A DNA stretch of 63,926 nt, the filler included, from Intoshia linei (lineage: Eukaryota > Animalia > Orthonectida): NCBI GenBank assembly GCA_001642005.1. It is 8 parts of 8 records of this genome, joined end to end, with 100 filler letters (N's around TTAATTAATTAA, not from the genome) between each part and the next. Parts side by side here need not be neighbours in the genome. Positions count along the whole stretch, not along the records: positions 35,229 to 45,175 come from LWCA01001323.1; 7 more parts are not named here. One strand, 5' to 3'. Both the position numbers and the translations under genes were made by a program. The notes beneath the pieces are model-generated. The model had not been told where the DNA came from, made no database searches, and saw only the letters and a list, made by a program, of their open reading frames with translations. Below are positions 1,298 through 50,046 of this stretch, one piece after another. The first letter of the stretch is position 1, and each line of letters begins with the position of its first letter.

Positions 1298-4200
1298 ATG
1301 CCATTATTGAACGGAGTAGAATTTATTAAATACGCATTACCATCAAATACACCAGCCGATACCAAAATTTTTTATTACACAGTGACCAATGAGGCCTTCA
1401 TAGATTATGAGTAAATTTTTTATTTCCGAATGTAATTTCTTTTAGATTATTTTTCAATCGCGTCGTTTTGTGCAATAGTTTGGTTTGGACTTGTTCATTG
1501 ACCTTACGACCACATTTAACTTATGCAGATTCTTTGAGAAGTGAACACAAGGCTTTACGTTTGCTCGGACGTATTCCATTTGAATTAAGAAGATCTATCC
1601 TATTAATGGTACCTCTGACGAAATTTAAAGCATTTAACCAACTTTCTGCGATACTATTTGATTTTGTAAAACAATACTATTTTAAGGACGAATTAATCGA
1701 ATGTAATTTAAATATGCATTCTGAAATTCAAGATATTAAAACCACTGGACGGATCACAAATGTTAGGTGCATTGATTCATTAGACGATAGTAACGAGCCT
1801 GATAGAAATCCGCCAAATCTTATTTATACAGTTCAATTAGAGGACTCGAATCTAGATTCAGACCATGAAAATGAAAAAACTAAACTACAAGTAAACCAAG
1901 AAAATATATGTCGTATACGCGGTCAAATTTCTCATGAACGCTGCAGAATTCTTTTACTTCATTATTGTCACAGGGTAGAAGGAATTTATACACTGAAACC
2001 TAAAACAATTGATGAGTATTTTTTAAAAGATGCCAAATTTTGTGAAGTTTTCATGAATGATTACCTAAATGTGTTTACTACTGACATGGGAGGAACACTA
2101 AAGTCTAAACAAGAACGTCAGCGGGAACTGAATTTGGAAAAATTTGAAAAGAAACAAAAATTTGCACAAGATAAAATCCAAACGAAACAACAAATTGAGA
2201 TGAAAAAAGAGGAACGAAAAAAACTTATCATAGATGAAAAGAATAGAAGAAAATTGCAACTACAGCAAATGAAAATCCAACAAAAAGTGGAAATGCAATT
2301 ACAAAAGTTGAAACAAAAAATAAAAAATTATAATACTGATGACTTGGAAATTGAACAACACTGTGGGCTATCAAAACCTTTAATCTACAAACCAAAACAA
2401 CATGAAAATCAATTATTTGAAGCTTCTTTGGTTATTGCAGATTTTTGTCAAAAATTTTCCAAACTTTTTGAAAAATACGATTTAACGCTACCTCATATAA
2501 CAGAAACAGACTTATCCAATTTATGTTATAATTATTCTGAAAATTCTATTTATTATGAAATTATTATTTCTTTGGTTAATTTCATTTCTCAAGCTTTTGA
2601 CGTTCAAATTAATGAGGATTACATCAAGGAAAATAAAAAAGTTAATCCAAATTTTAATCAATTTTATTTTAAATACGTTCTAACAATGAATGTAAAGTTT
2701 GATTCTTTTTTGTTGGATTGTATGAATATCAATGAATATTTATTATTAGTTTTTAATTTTATCCAAGAATATTACATTTCACAACCAGTTTGCGATATTA
2801 TTAAAGTTTTGTCAGATTGTGAAGTCAATCTTCTTGGGGAATTAGAGAGACTGATACTGGTCAATAAGATATTTGATGTGTTTCTAGACATTCCAGAGGT
2901 TCATTCTTATGTTGAAGATGGTATCACCGAATATGCCAATACTAAAAATGAGTTTAAGAATTTTCAAAGTAATGAAAACAAAAGAATAAAATTAAGAATG
3001 TTACATAAAACCAATGATGTTTCTAAAGAAGTTGACAAAAAAGTCGAAGAAAATATTAGTAATACTCGAAAAACTGAAACTATTTGCCAAGGATATCTAG
3101 ATTCTGATCCCAATGCTATTGATTGGTTAAAAGTAACAGATTCGGAATGGATTGTTATGCGAGAAAAGTATACACAATTAGATACAGATTGGAGAAACAA
3201 ACTTAAAAATGCACGTGATATAACGAGAATTTTACCTTTAGGTCGCGATAAATTCCATAATTACTACTGGAATATTCCTTGTCTTAAAAATGTGATAATG
3301 TGCGAATTCACCGATTTCTACAAATCATTTACTGGCAATCAACAACCTTATTTACATCCAGATGACACTGATCATGATTTTTTCATTGTTCAATCTGCAA
3401 ATTCCGATGTACATGAATCTTTAAATAATTCAAATCATATTACTGAAAAAGGTATTACCGAGGAATTGATGAATGGTACAGGATCGGTCTTAACCGGCAG
3501 TAACATTACAAAGTGTGCATTTGGCTTATACATTGGAAAAAATCATGTCAATTCCTTATACAATTCTTTGAGTTCAAATGGAGAACGTGAAAAAGCATTA
3601 AAAAAGGTTATTGAAATGAAAATGGAACAATACTGTGTAACAGACGATGAAGATAATGCATCCGTTTTCGAATTATTTTCGGATCCTATAAAAGTGAAAG
3701 AATTAACAAATGTTCAACTATATGTAAGTTACATTGTCGCAGCTGTTGAAGAATTTGCATTCAAACTTGTCAAGGGAGGGTTGTGTGGTAAGGTAACAGA
3801 TAGTGGATATGATCAATATGTGAAAACATTATCGTCAAATTCAACGTTGCAAGAAATAAAACAATGCGTTTTTTGGCTGAGTGAAATCATTTGTTCCAGA
3901 TTTCTCTATAAACCACTTGGAGTTTCTAAACTTCATAATCGCAAAGGGGTGAAAAAGATGCGTGGAGAATACTATGATTCAAAGGATGTAAAACCATTTA
4001 TAGAATGGTGCAATCAATTAGAAGTAGCAAACAATTTTTCTAAAGTTAAATTTTTGTTGGATATTTTCGATTCTTCTGTAATATGGAAACTTTCTATTGG
4101 AAATTCCAAGTGTAGTGTCTGTAATCGTTCAGGGAGTGAGGATTGTCTTTTACTGTGTGATTGGTGCAATTATGGATTTCACACTTTTTGCCTCCTACCT

Positions 4201-4895
4201 AAAATTTCAGAGGTTCCAGAGAACGATTGGTTTTGTACTTGGTGTGAAACAAATTGTTTCGAGTTCATATTGGAAGAATTTCCTAATGCTTCTAAAAGAA
4301 AAAAGAGAAAGAAAGAAAAACGTGGAAGAAAAAGAAAAAACTCTTCTAGTGCTACCAATGGGTATACTAATGGGTCTTCTTTAGTTCACACCAAATATAG
4401 AAAAGTTTTACATGACGAAAGAGGTTATATTAGTATTAATTATTTTTATTATATTTTAGAAGAATTGATAAATTTCATGCTAATAAATGTGGATCGAAAT
4501 CAAATCAACACTTCTGGCAAAAAAATTATTAAAAAGTTAATTTATCACAATGATAGTTGGCCCTTCCAAATTCCAGTAGACACCAAAATTGTAAATTTCA
4601 AATTCATTTTATAAAAATAGGAATAATTATTTATTTTATAAACCCATATCTTACATTATTATTTTAGTATCCAGATTACACTAAAATTATAAACAGACCC
4701 ATGGATCTGAAACAAATGATAGATAAATTAGATACGTGGGCCTACAAAAATTGGTCTGATTTTGTGTCTGATATTTTTTTAATTTTCGACAATTGCTGTA
4801 TATACAACAAGGACAATTCTGATGTATCCAAAGCAGGAAAATCTCTAAAAAATTATTTCTTAACCCAAATGAGAAAATTACAAGTTACTGACTGA
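1298..4895 (+). CDS. BAZ1A: BAZ1A/ACF1 chromatin-remodelling subunit (WAC-DDT-WSD-PHD-bromodomain)
   Basis: Exon 1 1298-1410 (MPLLNGVEF...TVTNEAFIDY, WAC start), 35-nt GT-AG intron 1411-1445, in-frame continuation ELFFNRVVLCNSLVWTCSLT; PLGRDKFHNYYW motif; PHD finger CSVC...LLLCDWCNYGFHTFCLLP...WFCTWC; bromodomain split by intron 4591-4667 (SWPFQIPVDTKI|YPDYTKIINRPMDL...FDNCCIYN); probable extra intron 4424-4459; TGA at 4895. Confidence 0.93.
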
Positions 4896-26939: not shown

Positions 26940-27118
26940 ATTTATAGTAATAATTAAAAACTATATGTATAACAAAATATATAAATGAAAAATGCAATTA
27001 ATGATAATATATATTTTAATTTAAATATAACTTCATTATCTGTGCATTATTACGAGTTCGCAATACATTATACATTAGGGTGGTTCAAAAAAATAATTTT
27101 AAAAGTACTTTTGAGTAT

Positions 27119-30100
27119 TGTAATGTTTAGATGATATAAATATCTTAGATATAGGTTTATTCACAATAAAATATCTTTTAGACGATAATAGGATATAGTG
27201 TTGATATAGTAACATTAAGTTTAACATAACATCATTACACCTTCGCCCCAAGATATTACAAGGTGTAATCTTGTAATCTTAAAGGTTTCTTGAGTACGTT
27301 TTGGTCGCTGTTTGAAAAGAGGGAGGTGTTTTTCATTTATTGGGAGATTCGGAATATAATTTGAATTGTGGTGAGTGAGATTTTTGATCCTAAGGTTATG
27401 GTTTGCTTTATGCTTTGTAATGTTTGTCTATCAAAATTTGAATTAATATGCATTTCATATCCTAAAACAATAGAAGCAGGAGTTTGACCAGTTTTAGATG
27501 AAATAGTAGATCTCATAGTCATTAAAACATTGAAGTAGATTGTCCCAGTCATTATCTGAATCAAGACATCTAAAACACTCACGAATTGTACGAATTCGTC
27601 TTTCAACTACGCCATTTTGCCAATGTTGATATGGATGATAGTGGTGTTTTTTTATCCCAAACATTTCGCATGATTCAATTACTATTTTACTTTCCAACTG
27701 TTTTCCACAATCAAAGTGCATTTCAGATGGTGGGCCGTAGCGGCTAATAATATTTTTTAAAATGGCTTTTACAACAGAATATATACCGTAATTTCACTAA
27801 CAGCCTCGCATTCAACCCACCCTGAGTAATGATCATACATTACAATTACGTATTTATTTAATTGACTTGTTTCTTTCAATGGTCCCATTATATCATTATT
27901 GTTATCATTATGTTGCCATAATTGATTGAAATAAATAGATGTGACAATTTTGAAAGGATTAAATTTGCTATGATTCCTATTTTTTGATATATTGCATTGA
28001 TGGCATTTAGCAACATATTCTTTTACATCTCGGTACATGTATCTCCAAAAGTAATTTTTTTTTATATTGGCGTAAGTAGCATTAATACCAGGATGGACAA
28101 AAGCTTTCGAATCATGATAATATTTTATAACTATTTTTATAGCAGAATCAGAAACTAAAATCAACTTTTCATTATTTTTAACATAATATAGTGTTTCATT
28201 AACATTGGAAGTGAGGAATACATTTGTCTAATTTTCCCCCGTTGAATGTCATTTAGGCCGACAAACTTTATCGCTCAAGTAGAGTTATAATAACGAGATA
28301 AAACATCCGCGGTAAAGTTGAATTTTCCAGGTTTATAACATATTTCGTAATCTAATTTATCCAAATACAATACCCATCGAACTAACTCACTGAGAATATT
28401 TTTGGATGTTCTCATATAAACTAATGGATTGTGATCAGTATATATCTTAGTATGAAGACCACTGATATATCTCTTAAATTTATGACATGCTTTAACAATA
28501 GCCAAAAATTCTTTTTTTGTAGTACTGTCGTTTTTCTCAGTGTCAGTTAATTTATTGCTATAATACTCGATAACTCTACCATTTTGTAGCAAGACAGCTC
28601 CAATTCCAACATTAGCGGCATCTGTTTCGATAATAAAAGCTAAATTTTTCTCTGGAATAGTGAGTAAAAGTGCAGATTTTAATGATTTCTTTAGTGCAGT
28701 AAACGATTTTTCCTGTTCTTCATTCCAATGGAATTTAACATTGTTTTTCAATAACTTGGTCATCGGTTCTAAAATTTCTGTGAAGTGATTTATGAACCTC
28801 CAATCAAACACAAAAGAACACATACCTAAAAAACTGCGTAACTTTTTTTGGTTGTAGGTTTGATAATTAAATTAATAGTATCAGTTTTTGAGGGATCAAT
28901 TTTGATTCCGTTAGAGTTAACCATATGACCTAATATTTTTATTTCAGTTTTACCTATCATACATTTACTTGGTTTGACAGTTAAATTTGCTTTTCGTAAT
29001 GCGAACAATACATTGTTTAAATCTATCTTATGTTCTTTAACAGAATTTAAAGCTATAATGATGTCATCTAAGTAAACAATTACATTATTTATGCCTTTTA
29101 AAACTTTGTCCATAACACGTTGACATGTCACCGGTGCATTAGACAATCCTTAAGGCATAACGTTATATTGGTAAAATTTGTCTTCAAATGATGTAGAAAA
29201 TGCAGTTTTCCAACGATCTGATTTTTTTAAAGGAATTTGCCAAAATCAAGAATATCTGTTTATTTCCAAGAAAATCAATGCATTCCTTTAAATCAGGTGC
29301 AGGATATCTATCCTTAATAATTGTCCTGTTCAATTCTCTAAAATCTATAACCATTCTATAAGAACCATTTTTTGTTTTTACTAAAAAATATCATGAATTA
29401 AAACTACTAACACTGGGTTCGATTACATTCATTTTTAACGCATTATCTATAATTTCACAATGATTATCACGTTGGTTGATTGATATTGGAAATGGCTTTG
29501 CACTTTATAATATAGTACTAGGGTCTAATGATATGGAATTTTCATGTTTTAGCAAGACCCATATTATCACAAATAACATCTGGGTACATAGAAATAACAG
29601 AATTAACATAATTATTAGAATCAAAATTTTTATTTTTAATAGATCGATTAATGTTTATCAGTTTCAATCCAATGGCATCTGGGCATCCTATGATATTTTG
29701 AGTATTTGTAACATAACATTTCATTGAATCTAAGCCGTTTATAAGATATACTACCGTCTCATAAAATTTTAATTTTGTTCCATCTGCAGAAAGAAGGATG
29801 TTATTACTAGGTATTATAGGTACATTTTTAAATTTTTTTAACGAATTCTTATTTATAAAATTTACATGAGATTCAGAATCAATGATAAATAATAAAATTA
29901 CATTGAACTCATCATTTATAAATTCAAGAGGTTGTTCAATTTCACCAGATGTTTGTTTGTAAACTGCCCTTATCTGTTTGTTAGGCATCAATTTTCGATT
30001 CTCTAATCTGCAATATTTGGCTAAATGTCCTGTTTTATTGCAATTATGACATTGTAAATTTGTGTTATCATTGTAATTATTGAATATAAAATTAATTTTG

Positions 30101-30704
30101 GATGCAATTATTTAATATTTCTTTAGATCAAGTGAATCATTTGTACTTAATTCAGTTTCAATAGCCGCATTATTAATTCCAAATAGCAATTGGTCTTGAA
30201 TGCGTTCATCAATATCAATAAACTTACATTTGTTCGCATGTATATATAATCTGGACATAAATGTAGACGCTGATTCATAATTATGCCTAATGCATTGTTG
30301 AAATTTCTTTCTATTTGAGGAAATATTTTTTGACTTCCATGAAGTAGATTCTTTTTTATAACTACTAAAGGTTTTTACTTCTGAATTCTTTAGGCGATTC
30401 CGCGCCACTTTGCCAATACTTAATTTGAGAAGAGCTATTTTTTCACTTCTTCAATTTGGTCTTGGGTCAGCAAGTAAAGGTAAACTGTTCAATCCTATCG
30501 CATGAGTCAATATTGAAATTTCCCGAATCATTAATGCATGTGGGTAAATTCATTGAAAACTTTTCCATGGTTTAAAAATATTTTGTAATGTTTAGACAAT
30601 ATAAATATCTTAGATATAGGTTTATTCACAATAAAATATCTTTAAGACGATAATAGGATATATTGTTGCTATAGTAACATTAAGTTTAACATAACATCAT
30701 TACA
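27119..30704 (-). mobile_element. Full-length decayed Ty3/gypsy LTR retrotransposon (Mag-like)
   Basis: 121-bp LTRs 27119-27239 and 30584-30704 (TG...CA, 5 mismatches), 5-bp TSD AGTAT, polypurine tract GGGGCGAAGG next to the 3' LTR; frameshifted gag (IQDQLLFGIN, CCHC-like knuckle), protease (IIDSES), RT (YLDD), RNase H (TDAANVGIGAVLLQ) and integrase (HPG...CHQC, NGVVER). Confidence 0.95.
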
Positions 30705-32305: not shown

Positions 32306-33769
32306 TTAAAACAAAAACCCAATTACACATATTTTTGCAACATTGCATAATAATAAAATACCAAGTAAATAATCGCCAGCTTTCATTCCACAACAATCAG
32401 CTATGGAATTAACATCAACTTTACCAATAGTCTCAGTCCATTGTTGTTCACTAAATACCAACTCAAATCCATAGGATGCATCCTGTCGAAAAAGCCGTAT
32501 ATTTTTAATGTAGGCAGTATTATCCGTCATTTGACTATCGACAGATTCAGTGACATTATTTGGATGGAGTACATTTTTAGACTCATCCGTAGATTGTGCA
32601 GATACAACATTATCATTAGATTCCTTGTCTTTATCATCAACATCATTTGTTTCGTGAATTTTAATGGTTGTTACAGATTTTCTAGCATACGGAATGGCTC
32701 CTTGACCAACGACATAAACTTTGACATCATCTTGAACTAGATTTACACTAGATGCTTGATTTGATGAGTTTTCATTAATTTTAACATTGTTTAAGCCATT
32801 AGTATCCTCAACAGGTACTTTAGTTTTATTACCCTTAACAATGGAAATAAGTTTATTAAATTTATTCTTATCAATCGATAAATTTTCTGGGAAACGTGAT
32901 TTGGAAGGATATTCACTGCAATATCCGTACAACCTCTCTATAGTGAAATTAAAAAAATGAAGGTACTGTAAAGTAGATAAATCACAAACAGAAAAATCTA
33001 CAGAATTTTCAACTGTATTCATTTCGTTAATTAAGACAGTATGTTTCATTTTGTCTGTATATTTATCTCGAACCTTTAAAAGAGAATAAAAATGTTTTAA
33101 GCCACTAATTTGAGCAGGTGAATTTTCTTCAATATGTGTAACAATCATTTTTTTAGTGTGAACTCGAAATCCGTATCCTTCATAAGAATCAATTTTGTCC
33201 AAAGTCAACTTTTCAATGTTGTAGGTAAAATCGCAATTTCCATATATCCCATATGGAAAATAATCTTGATTTACTGATTCCAAGTTTTGAACAAGTTGAT
33301 TAGAATACTTGTTTGCTAAAATAACAATCACAAATAAAAATATTATAATATATGTTACCTAAAATGTTTTCAATATTGGTACTATATTTCTTTAGAAACA
33401 GCAAAAATTCTGGTACAATACCAGTATCCAGCGCTAAAATAATTAGACTTTTAGTCTTTTTTATTTTTTCCACTACGTCTTGATATTTATCAAAAACTAC
33501 GTTGACACCATTGACGTGCAATACAAACTGTCCAGTAAATAAATGGGATCTAGCAGCCGGTGAGTCAGGGATAATTGATTCAACAATTTGAGTAAATCGA
33601 AGTGATGTAAATTTTAAATTAAAACCATAATTTTCATTACTATCACTTCTCTCCAAGTAATGTAGAGAACTTTTGGTAATGAAATATCTAAATTGTTATA
33701 CATTTCACATAAAAAACATCACCACCTGTATTTACTAAGAATGGATTCATCTTGTTTTTGTTTTTTCAT
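32306..33769 (-). CDS. Multi-PDZ scaffold protein (NHERF/PDZK1-like); 3' end uncertain
   Basis: Three PDZ carboxylate loops (NYGFNL, GYGFRV, SYGFEL) with SPAARSHL / SPAQISGL / SIADCCGMKAGD; short introns near 33690-33725 and 33316-33359. Confidence 0.78.
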
Positions 33770-35849: not shown

Positions 35850-37514
35850 AATTTATTACATTGTAGAAATAAATGTGTGTAATACAATCTTTTTATGTTT
35901 TGGAACTATCGTCATTCACTTTAATTTCTTAATATTTTCATTAAAATTTATATTTATGAAAAATAAATTTATATTCATGACAAACTCTGTATTTAAATTA
36001 AATATTATAAATATATGCTTTATTGCGTGAAAACATCAAATTAAATTAAAATTATACATCAAAATGAATAATCTTCATCTATAAAATCAACATGATATAA
36101 ACGACGAAATATATCTAGAAGATATAGGAAATATGGATTTATAGCATCTTGAGCATGACGATGATTTGATAGATCAAGTTAAAGAGTTAAAAGGTCTCAC
36201 CCCAAAATTCCGACGTAGAAAAAATGTTCAGAACCATCTTCAAAAATTCTCCTGAAAAGAAAATAAATACCAATATTATAATGGTACAGAATAATAATCA
36301 ACGTGAATTAGAGTAGAACAAATATGACTATGCCAAATTATTATTAAGGCGTATATTGATAAATGTGAAGATCAGATTAAAGAAGTTGAACATCTTCTCA
36401 CAACTGGATAATTATGATATTACCTATGAATTACTAACAGCACAGCCTAGATTTCCTTGGGTAACTCTTGATCCTAAGGTCTCTAACCAAGTACGCCTCA
36501 ATAGTGTCTTGGGAGGATAATATCTCCTTTACCAACATATGGTTCAGAAAATAAACCATTATCTTCGACATTCTAAAGCAACAGATAAGAATATAGCAGA
36601 TGACAAATTGATGACCTGGCTGATTACCAACGATTATCTCAAAATTATGGATGCATTGGATTCAGTACTATTATGAAGTAGAAGACTAGTATGAAGAAAC
36701 ATACACAAGCATATGCAATTATTATGTCCCTCAACTGGTATTTAGGAAATTCAACTAGTGTGTTGTTCGACCACCACGATTATCATCGCAACACAACCAA
36801 GCGGCATTAGCTCAATTAGACAAAGCACGTTGTGCTGACGTTGCAAAATATTACGTCACGGTAAAGAATGTACGCACATATACATTAAATGGTCCAACTG
36901 CCACACCATTACAGTATCGCCACCATATTCAACGGAAGTAGTTGACAAAGAATACCAAGCCTTACAATTTCTTAATGGAACGAAATATTTAAAATCAATA
37001 TGAAATCTAGTTTTATCTGATCTTTGTTTTGACCAGAAATAATTTTTTTTTATATTATTCGTTTCTAGTAAGAACTTGACCTAAAGATTTTGATTAAGTC
37101 TCTGAAATTTATCAAACAATGTATGTTAGGGTCAATGGGAAGATGAAGATTCACTGTATTCATTGGGTAACAACTATATCTTCATTATATCCCACAGCCT
37201 TTATAACATAACTATCATTAGTTACAGTTATAAAAATTATATCTACGACAAAATTTTTTATTTATAGGGGGAGTATATCGGAGTTAGTCGTAACTACACT
37301 CCTTCCTGTTATAAATCAAATTTCATCAAAAGATATTTTTCGATATTATTACATTCAATTTGTTCTACTTCATTTCATAATATATAGTTCTAGTTACCCT
37401 AATTACTTTGTTTCTTATTAAACTTATGAAAGTTACTTATGTTATGTTAAGTTACTTATGTTATGTTAAGTTACTTATTACTTATGAAATCTTATTTTTC
37501 TAATTATTTGTTAA

Positions 37515-38160
37515 TGTGGGGGAAGACCGACAGTATCAAAAAAGATACTAGCTCAAGGAGATAACCAAATTATATGCTTAACTTACAAAAGTCCAAGTAG
37601 ATTAGATAATGATTCATATGAACAAAAGACTAAATCAATAAAATTGAATGTCAAGACCATTATGCAATCGATAAAGAATGGAGCTTGTAAGTTAGATTTG
37701 CTAATAAAAGCAGATGAAACATAATGTTCCACTAACTTTCTAATATATGGAAAATATCATTTGTTCAGGGGTAGAATATTATGTCCTGAGTCAAAAACGA
37801 GTTTCAAGAGTCGGCTGTTTTTAAAATGACATGAAAATTAATATTTCAAATACAATTTATTCAATTGGTGCCGCCGCCTTACTATTGCTCAACATTCTTT
37901 ATTTTACCAAAGATCAATAGATCTTTTTTTATTATACGTAAATTCTTCACTTAGGCAAATATTGTTTTATAATCCTTCATTGATGGGGCCTAGCCTTATA
38001 TATTTAAAACATTGGAGTACATATCCAAGCACAGCCAAGAATAACAAATTTTAAATGAAGATTCTATTTGTAAATCCAGGAATAGGAGGGATGGCCTTAA
38101 CTAGATTCTTAATTCGGCAATTTCCGGATGGAATAACTGAATCACTCATTTTACGGTTCA
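37515..38160 (+). pseudogene. Endogenous viral element: rhabdovirus-like (Mononegavirales) L polymerase fragment
   Basis: KILAQGDNQIICLTY (GDNQ at 37557-37568), IMQSIKNGACKLDLLIKADET*CSTNFLIYGKYHLFRGRILCPESK, then after frameshifts VSRVGC, ISNTIYSIGAAALTIAQH and ILFVNPGIGGMALTRFLIRQFPDGITESL, in the same order as rhabdovirus L block III. Confidence 0.9.
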
Positions 38161-39214
38161 GAATGAAAGTTTCAAATTACGGAATTGGTGCCGTTCTCAG
38201 ACAAGGTTTACACACCATTCAATTTATCAGCAAATCTCTGAACGAAACTCGAATTAAATACTGCACCACTAACAACGAGTGGTTTGTGCAATCTTAAAAC
38301 TCAGAACATACTTACAAGGAAAAAAATTTACGGTAATCACAGACCACAAACCGTTAACAACAATTATGTCCTCGAATTCACTAACACATCAACAATTTAG
38401 ATACACTCAACTTCTCCAAGATTTTGACTTTGAAATAACATACAGACCTGGCAAACTTAATGTCACTGCCGACTATTTATCACGTAAACCTATCATCAAT
38501 GCAATTTCATTAACAAATAATAATCCATTTAAAATTAAGAAAAATCAATTTATGAATAAAACATTCTCTGAGTTAATTCGAAATATAAACTTTCAGGAAA
38601 ATTTAAACATTATGAACCCATTTCAATCTTTAAAAAACCAACTATGTATTTTAAAAGACAACCTTATCGGTAAAAAAATCAATAATAAAAACATAATACT
38701 TGTACACAAACTGTCAATATCCGAAATCATAAAATATTTTCATAATAATATCCAAAGCAACCATCCAGGCATTCAGAAAACCACCGAAAATATCAGGCAA
38801 CAGTACTATTGGTCTGGCATGTACAAAGATATAGCAACATGGATAATGAAATGTGAACGATGTAATTGTGGAAAATCTGGAAGAAAACTACATAACTTTC
38901 CGTTGAAGCAAATTAAAACGGAGAAATTCAATCAACTGTGGTAACGAGACTTCCTAGGCCCATTACAACAAAAGGATATGGGCAACAGATACATTTTGGT
39001 CATGATCGATCATTATAGTAACTGGGTGGAAGCAGTTCGAATGGCAAACATTACAGCTCAAAATTCAGTCGAAGCTGTTGTAAATAATATAATCTGTAGA
39101 TTTGGAATACCGAATCAAATACACACAGACAAAGCAACACAGTTCGAATTTCAATTATTTCAAGAAATTTGTCTCAAATGCGGAATATTAAAAACAAATA
39201 ACAATTATAATTAA
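38161..39214 (+). mobile_element. Ty3/gypsy pol fragment (RNase H + integrase), truncated at both ends
   Basis: SNYGIGAVLRQ, TDHKPL, YRPGKLNVTADYLSR, HPGIQKT...CERC, DFLGPL, IDHYSNWVEA, RFGIPNQIHTDKATQFE. Confidence 0.92.
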
Positions 39215-39261
39215 AAATAAAAAGGTTTATAATTTTTTAAAAGAGTATAAATTAAGTTATA

Positions 39262-39594
39262 ATGAAAACCGAAAATAAAGAAAAAAACAAGGAACATAAA
39301 GGAATCAGTTCATTATTGGCAGGAATAGGGGTATCTCGAGACTTTCAAAAAGGAGCAGATGCACGATTAAAAATATGGTATGATCAAGGAATTACCCCAG
39401 GGTTCAAGGAGGAAAATGGAAAAAGAGTTTACGACGAAGCGGGAAGCATTAAGTTAATAATTCCTCCTTTAGACTCATTAGCGTTGCCATATCATGAAAA
39501 GCTTTATCAAAGTAAAATCGAAATGGACTTAAAATACACTAAAAACTCCTCAGAGACAATCCCTCAATATCTCAAAATCTCAGAGACAAAATAG
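39262..39594 (+). CDS. Intronless orphan ORF (110 aa), origin unknown
   Basis: Open frame with ATG, more GC-rich than flanks, directly after the broken integrase. Confidence 0.35.
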   Translation: MKTENKEKNKEHKGISSLLAGIGVSRDFQKGADARLKIWYDQGITPGFKEENGKRVYDEAGSIKLIIPPLDSLALPYHEKLYQSKIEMDLKYTKNSSETIPQYLKISETK

Positions 39595-39639
39595 ATCCCT
39601 TAATTGTGGCTAGCTATATCTATTTACTCTCAAAAACGA

Positions 39640-39801
39640 AATTTGGCGACCTCGTTTGCTTCATAAAATGAATGATGACGATTATGATAGACGCATAGAA
39701 TTTTGTGAATAGTACAGCAACAACTCTATGAGAACATTAAAATTAGGAATAAAATAATTTGGACCAACGAAGTAAAGTTTAAGTTGAATGGCCACGTTAA
39801 C
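39640..39801 (+). mobile_element. mariner (rosa/DD41D-like) transposase fragment
   Basis: MNDDDYDRRIEFCE*...IIWTNEVKFKLNGHVN resembles the WSDEAxFxLNGxVN motif. Confidence 0.7.
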
Positions 39802-39909
39802 TTTGAAAACTTTGAAGATAAAATGGAATTCTTTTCATGCTTTTGTTTTGGATCATTAATGTACAATATTAAATAAAAGCTGTATTATTTTAAATTTTGT
39901 GTTCGTTAT

Positions 39910-40020
39910 TGTAATGATGTTGTTAAACTTACTGTTACTATAACAACAATATCCTATTATCGTCTTAAAGATATTTTATTGTGAATAAACCTATATCTAA
40001 GATATTTATATCATCTAAAC
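39910..40020 (+). mobile_element. Solo LTR of the 27119-30704 gypsy family, 3' tip replaced by a hAT end
   Basis: Near-identical to the reverse complement of the 121-bp LTR, ends at ...ATCTAAAC then CAGGGGTCGC. Confidence 0.9.
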
Positions 40021-40445: not shown

Positions 40446-40872
40446 AATTTTTTTATAAAATGAACAATTCAGTGAATACAACTGTAATATTAATAAACTA
40501 CAGTTCGATTTAGATCTAGTTTATAGCTACGAGAAAGTATATTCAAAATATAATTTTCTGTATACTTAATTAATATACAATTTCATATTAAGCGTTATCT
40601 TACTACAACAACTTTGTTAATATCAGTTTTATATTTATTAAAATCCTTTGCAATATTGGTAAAATTCGCCTGAAATATGTTTATAAAGTGAAGATTCGGT
40701 TCATTATTGATACATAATTGGTATTTTTAAGTATTTATTAAATTGGTACTGAATACATATCATCACATTGAAAATGATAAAATAGGTTTTTGTAATTTTA
40801 TTTTTTCTGGAATTTTTGCTATTTATGACAATTTTTCTCTAAGTACCCATGTCATTTATTTCTTTTTAATTC

Positions 40873-42076: not shown

Positions 42077-42625
42077 TGAGAAATGAAAATCAAAACGAGA
42101 GTGAATTGATGGGAGCAATAAATACAGGGTTTATATTGTTATGTATAAAGTTTTTAAATCTAATAGATTTAGTTCAATCACATCGGAGGACTGTAGTGCA
42201 TTTTACAGGTAAATGCTTAGTTACGTAGATCGAAGCTTGAACAGCGAGTGATTGCATAATAATAAAATATTTTGACATGTCAATAGAGATTGAATAAGAT
42301 TAAATTTTAAAACGGTGTGTTTAAAATTGAAAGCGGTATTAATAAATAATTTACATATTTACTCAAAGGGCCACTGGTTGCCAGCCCTGCTATAGTGTGT
42401 GACTAATATGAACATTAAAAAATGTTATCACAGAATTGTCAATGTAAAAGTTTAAAATTTTTAAAATAAAATATAAAGTATATATTTAAATCTCGATTAG
42501 TAAGATAGTGATATATTACAGTGCTGGCAATGTATCGAAATATTTTTATCGATTTCCAGCACTAATCACAAACCAATTATTAACTAATCGGTTGAAAATT
42601 ACGCAAAAAATTAAAAATTATTAAC

Positions 42626-44586
42626 CTTTTATTGGTAATTTCTTTAATGCAGACAACAACGTCCTTAATAGATTTAATTGAAACGGTAATTTTTCTGCAA
42701 CCAGGTGATTTTAAAATTTTTTGGATTAATGACATTGTTTCCGCCAATATATTCTGCGGACACATATCTATTTTTGTAACAACAATAATTAAAGGTAAAT
42801 CGAGGGCTAATATTAAACTTAAATGTTCTTTAGTCATTCCTATTATACCAGCGTTAGCACCAATCTACATAAACAACTATAAAAAATAAAAGTACAAAAA
42901 ATAATTAATAATAAATAATTATAACTATTCAGATAAAATTTAAAAGTATACCACCAAGACACTATGGTGCGGTTTATTTGACGTCATACCAAAAACTGTC
43001 GTTTTAAAATACTTTTCATGTCCGGCCAAATCAATAAAAGTTATTATCTAAAATAATAATTAAATAAAAAGTCAATAGTTTCACAGATGCAACCAGAAAA
43101 TGAAAAATAGACCAAAAAAATTACTAACCGATGCAGTGTCATATAGCCCTACCCAGATCTATAATGCTCTTGAATTGATGTAATATATTTTAAATTTAAC
43201 ACACAAAATAGTTGATATTGAAGATATAATTTTTTAATGCTTAATTTCAAAAAATAAGGTCTCAATTTTAGAAAAATTTCTTCAAACCCCTCGATACCCT
43301 CATTTTTATACAGAATATTTGTATTAAGGAAAATTATCATGTTAATATATTGTTTAATTTTCTTTTTATAATTTTAAGGACTCGATTAAATAAAACGATG
43401 CAATAAAATAATATACCTTTGACGAATTAATTCGAACATTTTTCCAATCCACCTTTCCTTTAATTGGTTTTACATAGTCACAATCCTCGTTGAACCCCAA
43501 AATGTAATTAGAAACACTACTAGTTCTCCCACTTGTTTTTTCGTGTAAATGCTGATGCAAACGTCCTCGGGTTAAACCCCTTCCGTCGTCTAATTGGTCC
43601 AACGTCAACACACCTAGAAATGATGTTTTTCCAGCGTCCACGTTTCCAAGAATGGCTATTCTAATATTAAAAAATAATACAAACAATAAATATCGCACTA
43701 ATGATAAAACTTTTTTGAAAATAATTTTTTAATAATTACAATTGTTTATCATCTTTTGAACGATTACTCCTATGTAACATCCGATTCGATTTTGTAACAT
43801 ATTGATTAATACATTGTTTTTAAACATTTTTGGTAAATTTACCGACTTTTACAAAATTTTTCACAAAATTTTTGTCAAAAAGTGAAAATATTCAGATCAT
43901 TCAATTTTTTATTTATGTATATATATATATTTTTTATCGTAATTATGTAATTGCTTTCTTATTAGTTTCATAAATTAGATTTATAATTTTATAAAGATTC
44001 GTTTTCAGTGTTCCATACCCTTCAAAGCTTTGCAGTGAACAGTATATATTTTAATATTGTAAAGCAAAACACAAAAAACAAATTTTAACCATTCTAATCA
44101 ACGGTTACATATATACAAAAGCAAAAAATAACTTACCTAACCTCGATATATATGCTATTGATCATATTTTTTCGTATTAAAAAATGTTGAATTTCATTTC
44201 CATCTTCCAATTTTTCAGCAAGTATTAATGTGGATTTACACTTTAAAATTGTACAAATTTTTTCCAAAGTTTCTAATGATAATTCCATTTGTGATGCTGT
44301 TATACCACGTTCTTTTGATTTTCCTAAAAATTTAAAATTAACAAAATAAAAGAATGTAATCAAGAATATAAAATTAAAAAACCTTCCAATCCAATAGTCA
44401 AAATACATTCTCCACTTCTAATGTATATTTTTTCTTCAATATCATTACACAACAAATCCATTACAGGCTGAGAAGGTTCTACATATACTTCCTAATAAAA
44501 TACATTTAAATAAAATGTAGATTTACCTTTCTGTCAATATTGTAGTCAATTTTTTCTTCATTTTTTATCAATTCTTTTTCGTTCAT
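42626..44586 (-). CDS. GTPBP1: GTP-binding protein 1 (translational GTPase), 5' exons only
   Basis: [77 protein letters not shown]; ends at a GT donor; domain II/III exons not seen. Confidence 0.92.
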
Positions 44587-47609: not shown

Positions 47610-48533
47610 TGTTTAAGGGTCAAAAACCCCTGTTGTCCCTCTTTTTGAAAATTAAACAAGTTGGAGAATTTAAAAAAATATATACGCTGATGCGGATTTT
47701 AAAATCCTAAACAAAAAAATTTACAGGTGGTAGAGTTGTATCATGTTACCACACATAAAAAATTTCAATCCGAATAAGTGACGACTTCACGGTCAAAAAA
47801 GCATTTTAGTATTCATATATTTTTTTTCCGAAATATTTTATTAAAACAAAAAATATGAAATAATTAACGGTCCGAAAATTTAAAAAAAGGATTATTCTGA
47901 TAGAGCTTATTCCAGTTGATATAAATACAAAATTTCAACCCCAGAAATCTACGTATTCTCGGTAAAAAATAATTTTTAATATATTATCAACCAATATTTT
48001 TCAAATATTTCGATTAAAATAAAAAATTGAAAATGACAAAATAGGTTTTTATAATTTTATTTTACTGGACTTTATGCTATTTATGACAATTTTTAGGATT
48101 GGACTGTTTTTACTTTATTTTTAATATTATACACACATTTTGTCTAATAAAATTGGACTGTTTTTACTTTATTTTTAATATTATACACACATTCTGTCTA
48201 ATAAAATTAAAAAGTTTTAACTTTATTTTTAATATTATACACACATTCTGTCTAATAAATTAAAAAAATGGGATAATTGTTTTTAAAATTCTTTACGCTA
48301 GTGTTAACTAAAAAAATTAAAATGGAATAATTCACTTTAAAGTAAAAAGTAATGTGATATGACGGTTCCACCTGAAACAAAATTTGGGACTACTCTTTTA
48401 AAAAATTGATAATAGTTAATAATAGGATTTTTAAATTAGATTTTCAACGTGAATTTATTTTTTTGGTATAATAAAAGAGTGCCCTCTGCAGAGCTAGGTG
48501 CTGTTTGTACATAGTACAGAACAGCCAAGCTAG
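47610..48533 (+). mobile_element. Non-autonomous Helitron-like element, 3' part
   Basis: Ends with hairpin GCTGTTTGTAC-ATA-GTACAGAACAGC then CTAG|T; similar 3' ends at about 10814, 13275, 20116, 59369 and 22942 (minus); about 53-bp tandem triplication at 48095-48262. Confidence 0.8.
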
Positions 48534-48758: not shown

Positions 48759-50046
48759 TCATATAACTGCGTACCTTTCTACTCTTAGATTTACGCTAAG
48801 TTTCCGAGAGCGATAATTTTCATATAGTGTATTGTCTGTAATGTCTTTTAGATCATGAATATACTTTGTGAGTAAAGTTTTCAACATCGTAAAATCACAA
48901 TATTGCGGATTTTCAATATTAACGAAACCCCACGAATATTCTCTGCCCAATATTTTTCGATCTGATAATAATTTTGATGAATTTGCGCCTATAACAGCAA
49001 ATGGCATGCATTTGTTTATATTTGATAACTCATTCAAATAATCATTATCTTCTTCATCGTAATCTATCATTTTATACACGTTTATGTTATTTTCTTTTAT
49101 TTGCTCCAAGATCTAGAATGCTGAGTTTAATTCAATTTTATTGTAATATATTTTAAATTACTTTTGTTTTTAGATTATGCACTTCTCCTTTAGTCAATAT
49201 GTCTGATTTTGCAATCACTAAAATTATATTTACTATATCGTCGATTTTTTTTAAATCTTCAATATCGGTTTCTTTTAGTCTAAATAAAAGTTTTTTTATA
49301 CCATGCAAAATTTATTCAAAGTGGGTCTACGGTTTCTAATTTCATACTTCATATTCAAAATTCAAATAAGAATGATATAATTAAATACGTTAAGAAATCA
49401 ATTTCTGCGAATGAGACCTAATTTTTAAATTCTCGGTAAAAATTAGATCATCGATGTTATACTTACAAAAATAAAGAATTTTTTTTTTAATTTACAAAAT
49501 ATTGGTTTATAAAAATTTATAAAATGTTGAAATACATTTTTGACCGGTAGGATGCAAATTTCAAGATTGAAACTTGACTTTATTTGATATAAAAAAACTA
49601 TTGCAATAATACATTTTTAAAATACAAACTTTTTACTTACAACTTACAATTCAAACTTAGATGAATAATAATTTATTAAATATTGCCTAATAAAATAAAA
49701 TTTGTTATTTTGACCTTGAAGCTGACTCAGACTTAGATTGAAATTGATGGTAATCCATCTGGCGTTAAAAAATGTATAAAAATTTTTGCATGATTATTTT
49801 TTTTTATAATTATTTACTAATTTATTTATTTTTTATCAACTAACCGATTATAATCGGATTAAAACACATATAACCGACAGACATATTTAATTTTATGTAA
49901 GTAAGGATTACTTGTTTCCAATAGGATTTAAAAAAAAGATACAGGCATGAATTCGGTTATCCACAATTTTTTGTCTATTAATTCCAGATTCCCAATTGTA
50001 ATGTTCATCAAATTTCTCCGAAATAAAATTTATGATTGGTTGGATT
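48759..50046 (-). CDS. Septin, last three exons
   Basis: ESGINRQKIVDNRIHACIFFLNP; VNIILVIAKSDILT (G4); PFAVIGAN; GREYSWGFVNIENPQYCDF; LYENYRSRKL. Confidence 0.92.

Follow-up and report, generated by a model that had tools for sequence, protein, structure and literature searches.

Insects are well known to carry rhabdovirus EVEs next to gypsy elements. For Aedes, the available text of 10.1101/127498 gives such EVEs a median length of 620 bp, finds them enriched beside Ty3/gypsy elements on the same strand, and proposes template switching as the process behind them. The locus described here lies in a stretch of 63,926 nucleotides from the orthonectid Intoshia linei, a tiny marine parasite (the window, meaning the whole stretch that was analysed, a chain of contigs with N blocks between them), and is reminiscent of the EVEs of Aedes aegypti as portrayed in that text: a partial gene of ~600 bp on the same strand as an adjoining Ty3/gypsy element. 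It differs in that the mosquito is an arthropod whose rhabdovirus EVEs derive mostly from N and G, and rarely from L, whereas the host here is an orthonectid and the gene is L. The members of Betaplatrhavirus (Himastelon rhabdovirus, triaenorhabdovirus 2 and Beihai dimarhabdovirus 1) are likewise rhabdoviruses of parasitic worms, according to the accessible part of PMC12451637, and a flatworm origin of lyssavirus ancestors has been proposed (10.1101/803247, in the portion available).

What is new here is the host phylum, Orthonectida, and the viral branch; a non-retroviral EVE as such is well known. Subscription papers and the supplements of PMC11097642 aside, we found no report in the literature of a virus, rhabdovirus or EVE of an orthonectid or of Intoshia. 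Two surveys that include Orthonectida name no Intoshia virus in their available text (10.1101/2023.11.03.565523 and PMC13524379), and neither 'intoshia' nor 'orthonectida' occurs in the one supplement of PMC10101049 examined.

We hold with great confidence that the L fragment of Table 1 is a genuine integrated piece of a rhabdovirus. Translated with stops read as X, positions 37521-38297 match PF00946 (Mononeg_RNA_pol) with an E-value of 7.4e-25 and 87.3 bits against a cut-off of 27, over model positions 705-912 of 1068; this is the significant Mononegavirales match that a sequence-only reading of this DNA had set as a check on itself. The best solved structure is that of rabies L (PDB 6ueb, E 4.7e-28, residues 722-923), with VSV L second (E 2.7e-20) and the remaining nine of the 11 PDB matches, also Mononegavirales L proteins (paramyxo-, filo- and similar), at E 0.004 or worse. 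Our own L profile, built from 26 full-length L proteins, scores 165.7 bits, where 500 codon-shuffled versions of the stretch reach at most 5.8 bits, the fragment covering positions 688-896 of its 2101; no second L piece was found in the window by this profile. The L motifs quoted in the sequence-only reading are indeed present on the + strand in the frame of 37515, among them the catalytic motif C, GDNQ, intact at 37557-37568. Conservation extends further, with 28 of the 32 columns that are conserved in at least 90% of 80 references kept by the fragment.

The commonest tblastn start is 37542 (55 HSPs), and the commonest end 38147 (73 HSPs). The interval first proposed, 37515..38160, does contain the L core, but its ends give way to these firmer limits, its last bases already belonging to the gypsy RNase H match. 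Seven HSPs begin at 37488-37500 and the L-profile envelope begins at 37500; to judge from the sequence, L similarity may reach back to ~37500, or this AT-rich stretch may match by chance. Within the firm limits, in-frame stops lie at 37722, 37822 and 38052, and the frame changes near 37795 and again near 37870-37877, the stretch between matching L in another frame; the stop at 37722-37724 and the frameshifts reported earlier are thus real. No full-length L frame with capping and methyltransferase domains was found, there being five lesions and only about one tenth of L, and the fragment makes no working polymerase. Nor were further viral genes recognised near it, or longer homologous proteins found among 305 candidates, in a size range from which L proteins of >2000 aa were excluded.

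Table 1. Features of the L locus, its surroundings in the window and its sibling copies; positions count along the window.
Feature	Position or contig	Strand	Evidence or remark
Decayed rhabdovirus L fragment (RdRp palm, motif C onward; ~200 codons)	37542..38147	+	Pfam, PDB, tblastn limits, L profile
Weak leftward extension of L similarity, uncertain border	37488..37541	+	tblastn, profile envelope
Junction of L with the retrotransposon, no host spacer of any size between the matches	38148..38171	+	L end 38147; RT_RNaseH_2 start 38160, same frame
3' half of Ty3/gypsy pol: RNase H, integrase zinc finger, integrase core	38160..39211	+	RT_RNaseH; Integrase_H2C2 E 5e-18; rve E 7e-12
19-bp tandem repeat immediately left of element	37430..37478	.	
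Decayed coding-like stretch	36064-36990	+	GC 0.34; 550 bp upstream of L piece, same strand
Open 110-aa frame behind integrase	39262-39594	+	
Near-complete Ty3/gypsy element, gag-pol broken over several frames	27118-30704	-	
Solo LTR, 3'-truncated	39910-40020	+	93-94% identical to LTR of 27118-30704 element
Tc1/mariner-like DDE transposase remnant at contig start	35177-35849	+	DDE_3 E 1.6e-10
Very high-copy repeat	40600-40836		Summed depth up to ~12,000 in X1
54-bp tandem units	48098-48259		Related to repeat 40600-40836
Host GTPBP1-like gene exons	42580..44417	-	PDB GTP-binding protein 1 E 1e-19; GTP_EFTU matches
Host gene, BAZ1A/ACF1-like	1411-4614		
Host gene, multi-PDZ protein	32306-33695		
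Host gene, septin	48759-49112		
Sibling A3Q56_08643	contig of 954 bp		
Sibling A3Q56_01665	contig of 49,425 bp		
Sibling A3Q56_04281	contig of 24,251 bp		
A3Q56_06911, 167 aa, gene model of the window copy			UniRef machine name 'RdRp catalytic domain-containing protein'

On its right, the fragment runs into a Ty3/gypsy pol whose match begins inside the RNase H domain, within ~15 bases of the end of L and on the same strand. The pol remnant has lesions of its own, a frame change near 38280 and a stop at 38942. Upstream, tblastn with the window's second gypsy element detected no reverse transcriptase, protease or gag, and a search around the L-pol block turned up no pair of flanking repeats, cognate LTR, polypurine tract or target-site duplication. 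The second element, to which the pol remnant is only 39% identical, has two LTRs of ~120 bp that are 96% identical, and a purine-rich stretch before its 3' LTR. We considered the solo LTR as the end of the pol that adjoins L and rejected it, since it is of the other element family and comes without a polypurine tract. The contig (35229-45175, 9,947 bp) also carries the GTPBP1-like gene, 4.4 kb from the element, and has seven repeats in common with other contigs of the window, 81-94% alike and including the LTR family; its GC of 0.29 is in line with the window. The viral sequence is therefore contiguous with host DNA, by virtue of both this gene and the repeats shared across contigs.

Several neighbouring stretches deserve a mention in their own right. 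The decayed coding-like stretch upstream of the L piece gave no match to Pfam, NCBIfam, PDB, the L profile or viral contigs, one 15-residue match being taken as chance; its Atlas scores for RNA-virus RdRp clusters reach at most 0.86, below the Atlas's own bar, and the L exon that shares its record may have influenced them. It could be another viral fossil, and sequencing run X2 contains 171 identical bases of it. The open frame behind the integrase has no Pfam, NCBIfam or usable Atlas match, and the BAZ1A/ACF1-like gene is very divergent, with one weak relative among 7,996 candidates. The first gene of the window shows 99% identity to A3Q56_07132 of Intoshia linei.

The sequence-only reading had also set presence in genomic DNA reads as a check. 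Four sequencing runs are listed, three of them from one sample. In X1, the kind of which was guessed ('DNA?'), a single 2490-base contig extends over 37485-39884, free of gaps and differing at 15 letters, spans the junction, and runs on leftward across a 47-base skip (37438-37484) in the tandem repeat, whilst a second contig covers 35925-37377. The X1 haplotype stands ~0.6% from the window, with both borders spanned and the frame changes identical; the assembly was possibly built from X1, which does not count as independent evidence. X2, which comes from another study, under another organism label and of unrecorded kind, contributes a contig of 188 bases within L, identical to the window throughout, at a depth of 4; X3 and X4 contain next to none of the stretch and were set aside. 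At 85% likeness, X1 covers L and pol at an even depth of 14.5, which argues that no close paralogue is included. Two haplotypes ~0.6% apart, presence in a second study and heavy decay fit germline inheritance.

The window copy is one of at least four in this assembly. A search of representative proteins gave 131 at E <=0.001, four of which are I. linei models on four contigs, and a profile search among proteins of 56-371 aa returned exactly the same four. In A3Q56_06911, the window copy's own model, stretches from upstream are spliced to the GDNQ exon, and the model finishes at the first stop. The three siblings, known as predicted proteins only, carry the same part of L, every search having been queried with this part, and the copies are 72-89% alike. 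Between the window copy and the siblings, identical shared columns number 92/113, 58/79 and 69/96; among the siblings, they number 53/69, 33/37 and 24/28. Lesions differ from sibling to sibling, and the four I. linei 'hypothetical proteins' are spliced-together viral fossils.

The borders of these copies are informative too. In A3Q56_04281, L is linked to an Integrase_H2C2 domain, which at E 1.8e-5 falls just short of the cut-off and finds no match in the window's integrase; the link belongs to a predicted gene model in which a false intron is possible. A3Q56_01665 extends in L 50-59 residues beyond the window copy's end (in 24 of 33 full-length matches); this tail scores 32 bits, where 100 shuffles reach no more than 25.4, and its best match is triaenorhabdovirus 2 (50% over 32 aa). 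The Pfam matches of the window copy and A3Q56_01665 both start at model position 705. In the window copy and A3Q56_08643 alike, a conserved motif has a gap of three residues, and one residue is common to all four copies; gap and residue are each found in 0 of the 80 references. Shared gap and shared odd residue fit one founder copied later as well as they fit a viral trait.

A tree that includes 80 full-length references unites the four copies in a single clade, with support of 1.0 and a stem of 0.79. The finer tree was unconstrained and used 45 of the 80 references, hand-chosen for spread. Genus assignments follow the available parts of PMC12451637 and PMC12282299; of 30 names looked up, 17 belong to named viruses, all of them rhabdoviruses, nine are unnamed and four are I. 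linei. The phylogeny that had been suggested beforehand bears out the clustering with rhabdovirus L proteins: the copies fall inside the group of Betaplatrhavirus, Lyssavirus and the dimarhabdovirus crown (SH-aLRT 100, in a tree without a named non-rhabdovirus outgroup), and outside the 26-taxon crown itself (support 100). Together with the Pfam and PDB matches, the 131 representative proteins and the border-spanning contigs, the trees back the earlier claim of an endogenous rhabdovirus-type L from an undescribed virus.

The exact node is weakly supported (SH-aLRT 48-53), and the copies' stem is long, at 0.67-0.79 substitutions per site. An AU test over all 87 branches kept 12 placements, or nine with the extra tail of A3Q56_01665, all of them deep: below Lyssavirus plus crown (the best), on the whole-clade stem, at the unnamed reference P0011, at the base of Betaplatrhavirus, at Lyssavirus and at near-root nodes. 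The Betaplatrhavirus base or P0011 is retained with AU values of 0.19-0.47, but the best tree puts the fragment outside the genus, identity to it is 37-41%, and a sister placement to any named member is rejected. Lyssavirus offers the best structure match and 40% identity, and a sister placement to it (European bat lyssavirus, P0013) has AU values of 0.29-0.37; lyssaviruses, however, have mammalian hosts, and the best placement of the fragment is below Lyssavirus plus crown. All placements within the crown are rejected by AU, with a loss of at least 35 log units. The vesiculoviruses belong to this crown; no tip in it was labelled vesiculovirus by name. The vesiculovirus affinity proposed in the sequence-only reading is accordingly rejected: the order of motifs is alike, but VSV L scores below rabies L. 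A scan for Himastelon-like genomes among viral contigs found none. On these alignments, the source virus was likely an unsampled deep branch, close to where Betaplatrhavirus, Lyssavirus and the dimarhabdovirus crown diverge, whilst attraction of a long branch to deep nodes, with 200-230 columns, may have played a part.

How could a piece of rhabdovirus L come to lie against a gypsy pol? We posit that, in a germline cell, the reverse transcriptase of a Ty3/gypsy element would have started its copy at the 3' end of the element and would then have switched template to the messenger-sense RNA of the virus; the resulting chimera would likely have entered a chromosome and decayed. On the basis of established retroelement biology, we infer template switching from the order of L, RNase H and integrase in one sense, with the element's 5' half gone; germline infection of the orthonectid itself would be a further part of the account, which as a whole we consider somewhat more probable than its competitors taken together. 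Since cognate LTR, polypurine tract and target-site duplication are missing, integrase-driven insertion is no more than a possibility, and since the contig is crowded with broken elements, adjacency to gypsy may also arise by chance or later deletion. The sequence-only reading took it to be probably a virus of this host lineage; the source virus could have infected the orthonectid or, equally, the animal in which the orthonectid lives, and that the copies fall near viruses of parasitic flatworms is a hint and no more. Once integrated, the L fragment could possibly have served as a putative small-RNA template.

The most serious competitor to gypsy capture is that a single longer L cDNA entered the germline via LINE machinery or break repair and was then duplicated with its surroundings, the contact with gypsy being due to later deletion or nested insertion. 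All four copies overlap in one tenth of L, two of them start at Pfam 705, and the gap and the odd residue are shared, all as a single insertion would leave them; the lack of a cognate LTR and the repeat-rich setting also suit it, and 72-89% identity is compatible with 5-15% neutral base divergence. The overlap, however, is partly built in, the window stretch being the query in every search, and two copies adjoin two different gypsy families, with the fusion in the window on the same strand and within ~15 bases. The distribution of differences between copies also speaks against a single insertion, conserved columns being spared beyond the neutral prediction: 4 of 29 conserved columns vary against 52 of 166 variable ones, a ratio of 0.44, compared with 0.025 (maximum 0.13) in 35 pairs of real viruses and a mean of 0.99 in neutral simulation (P 0.03; with a looser threshold the ratio is 0.63, P 0.07). 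The departure from neutral expectation is thus a weak one. As the ratio lies between virus pairs and neutrality, much of the divergence arose after loss of function, and part of it may predate that loss; if wholly neutral, the 72-89% identity would correspond to ~5-15% base divergence, at least ten times the difference between haplotypes. The different right ends, the presence of two gypsy families and the partial sparing of conserved sites lead us to infer that a virus lineage persisting in the host was captured more than once to give the four copies, which then decayed neutrally, and we regard the single insertion as rather unlikely.

Far less probable is that the contig is DNA of the parasitised host animal, or the junction an assembly chimera. 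Host DNA is commonly present in parasite assemblies, and X2 bears another organism label with its kind unrecorded; against this stand a separately assembled contig that differs by 15 letters and spans both borders, the seven repeats, LTR family included, shared with other contigs of the window at 81-94% likeness, the matching GC of 0.29, and the presence of copies on four assembly contigs. We give the least credence, and very little of it, to a domesticated, expressed gene. A model, A3Q56_06911, does exist in NCBI and UniRef, and GDNQ and 28 of 32 conserved columns are retained, but ~200 of 2,100 residues cannot form a polymerase, the model stops at the first of three stops, the two frame changes come with no gap relative to the second haplotype, and every sibling is broken differently.

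Gypsy capture or not, the fragment and its three siblings are likely traces of a past infection with a deep-branching rhabdovirus that has yet to be described. The branch marked by the fragment has no close sampled relative, the best full-length L proteins being 37-41% identical, and the fragment offers a sharp virus-retrotransposon junction outside arthropods. Its node is relevant to the question of whether rabies-like and insect-borne rhabdoviruses descend from viruses of parasitic invertebrates. Tentatively, and at somewhat less than even confidence, we suggest that orthonectids hosted their own genus-level rhabdovirus lineage at the lyssavirus/dimarhabdovirus node, with a germline infection persistent enough for different gypsy elements to capture it several times. 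If true, this would add a second endoparasitic spiralian phylum to the flatworm-origin scenario for lyssavirus ancestors, as set out in the available portion of 10.1101/803247. A living virus may persist in Intoshia, and the fragment is a probe with which to look for it.
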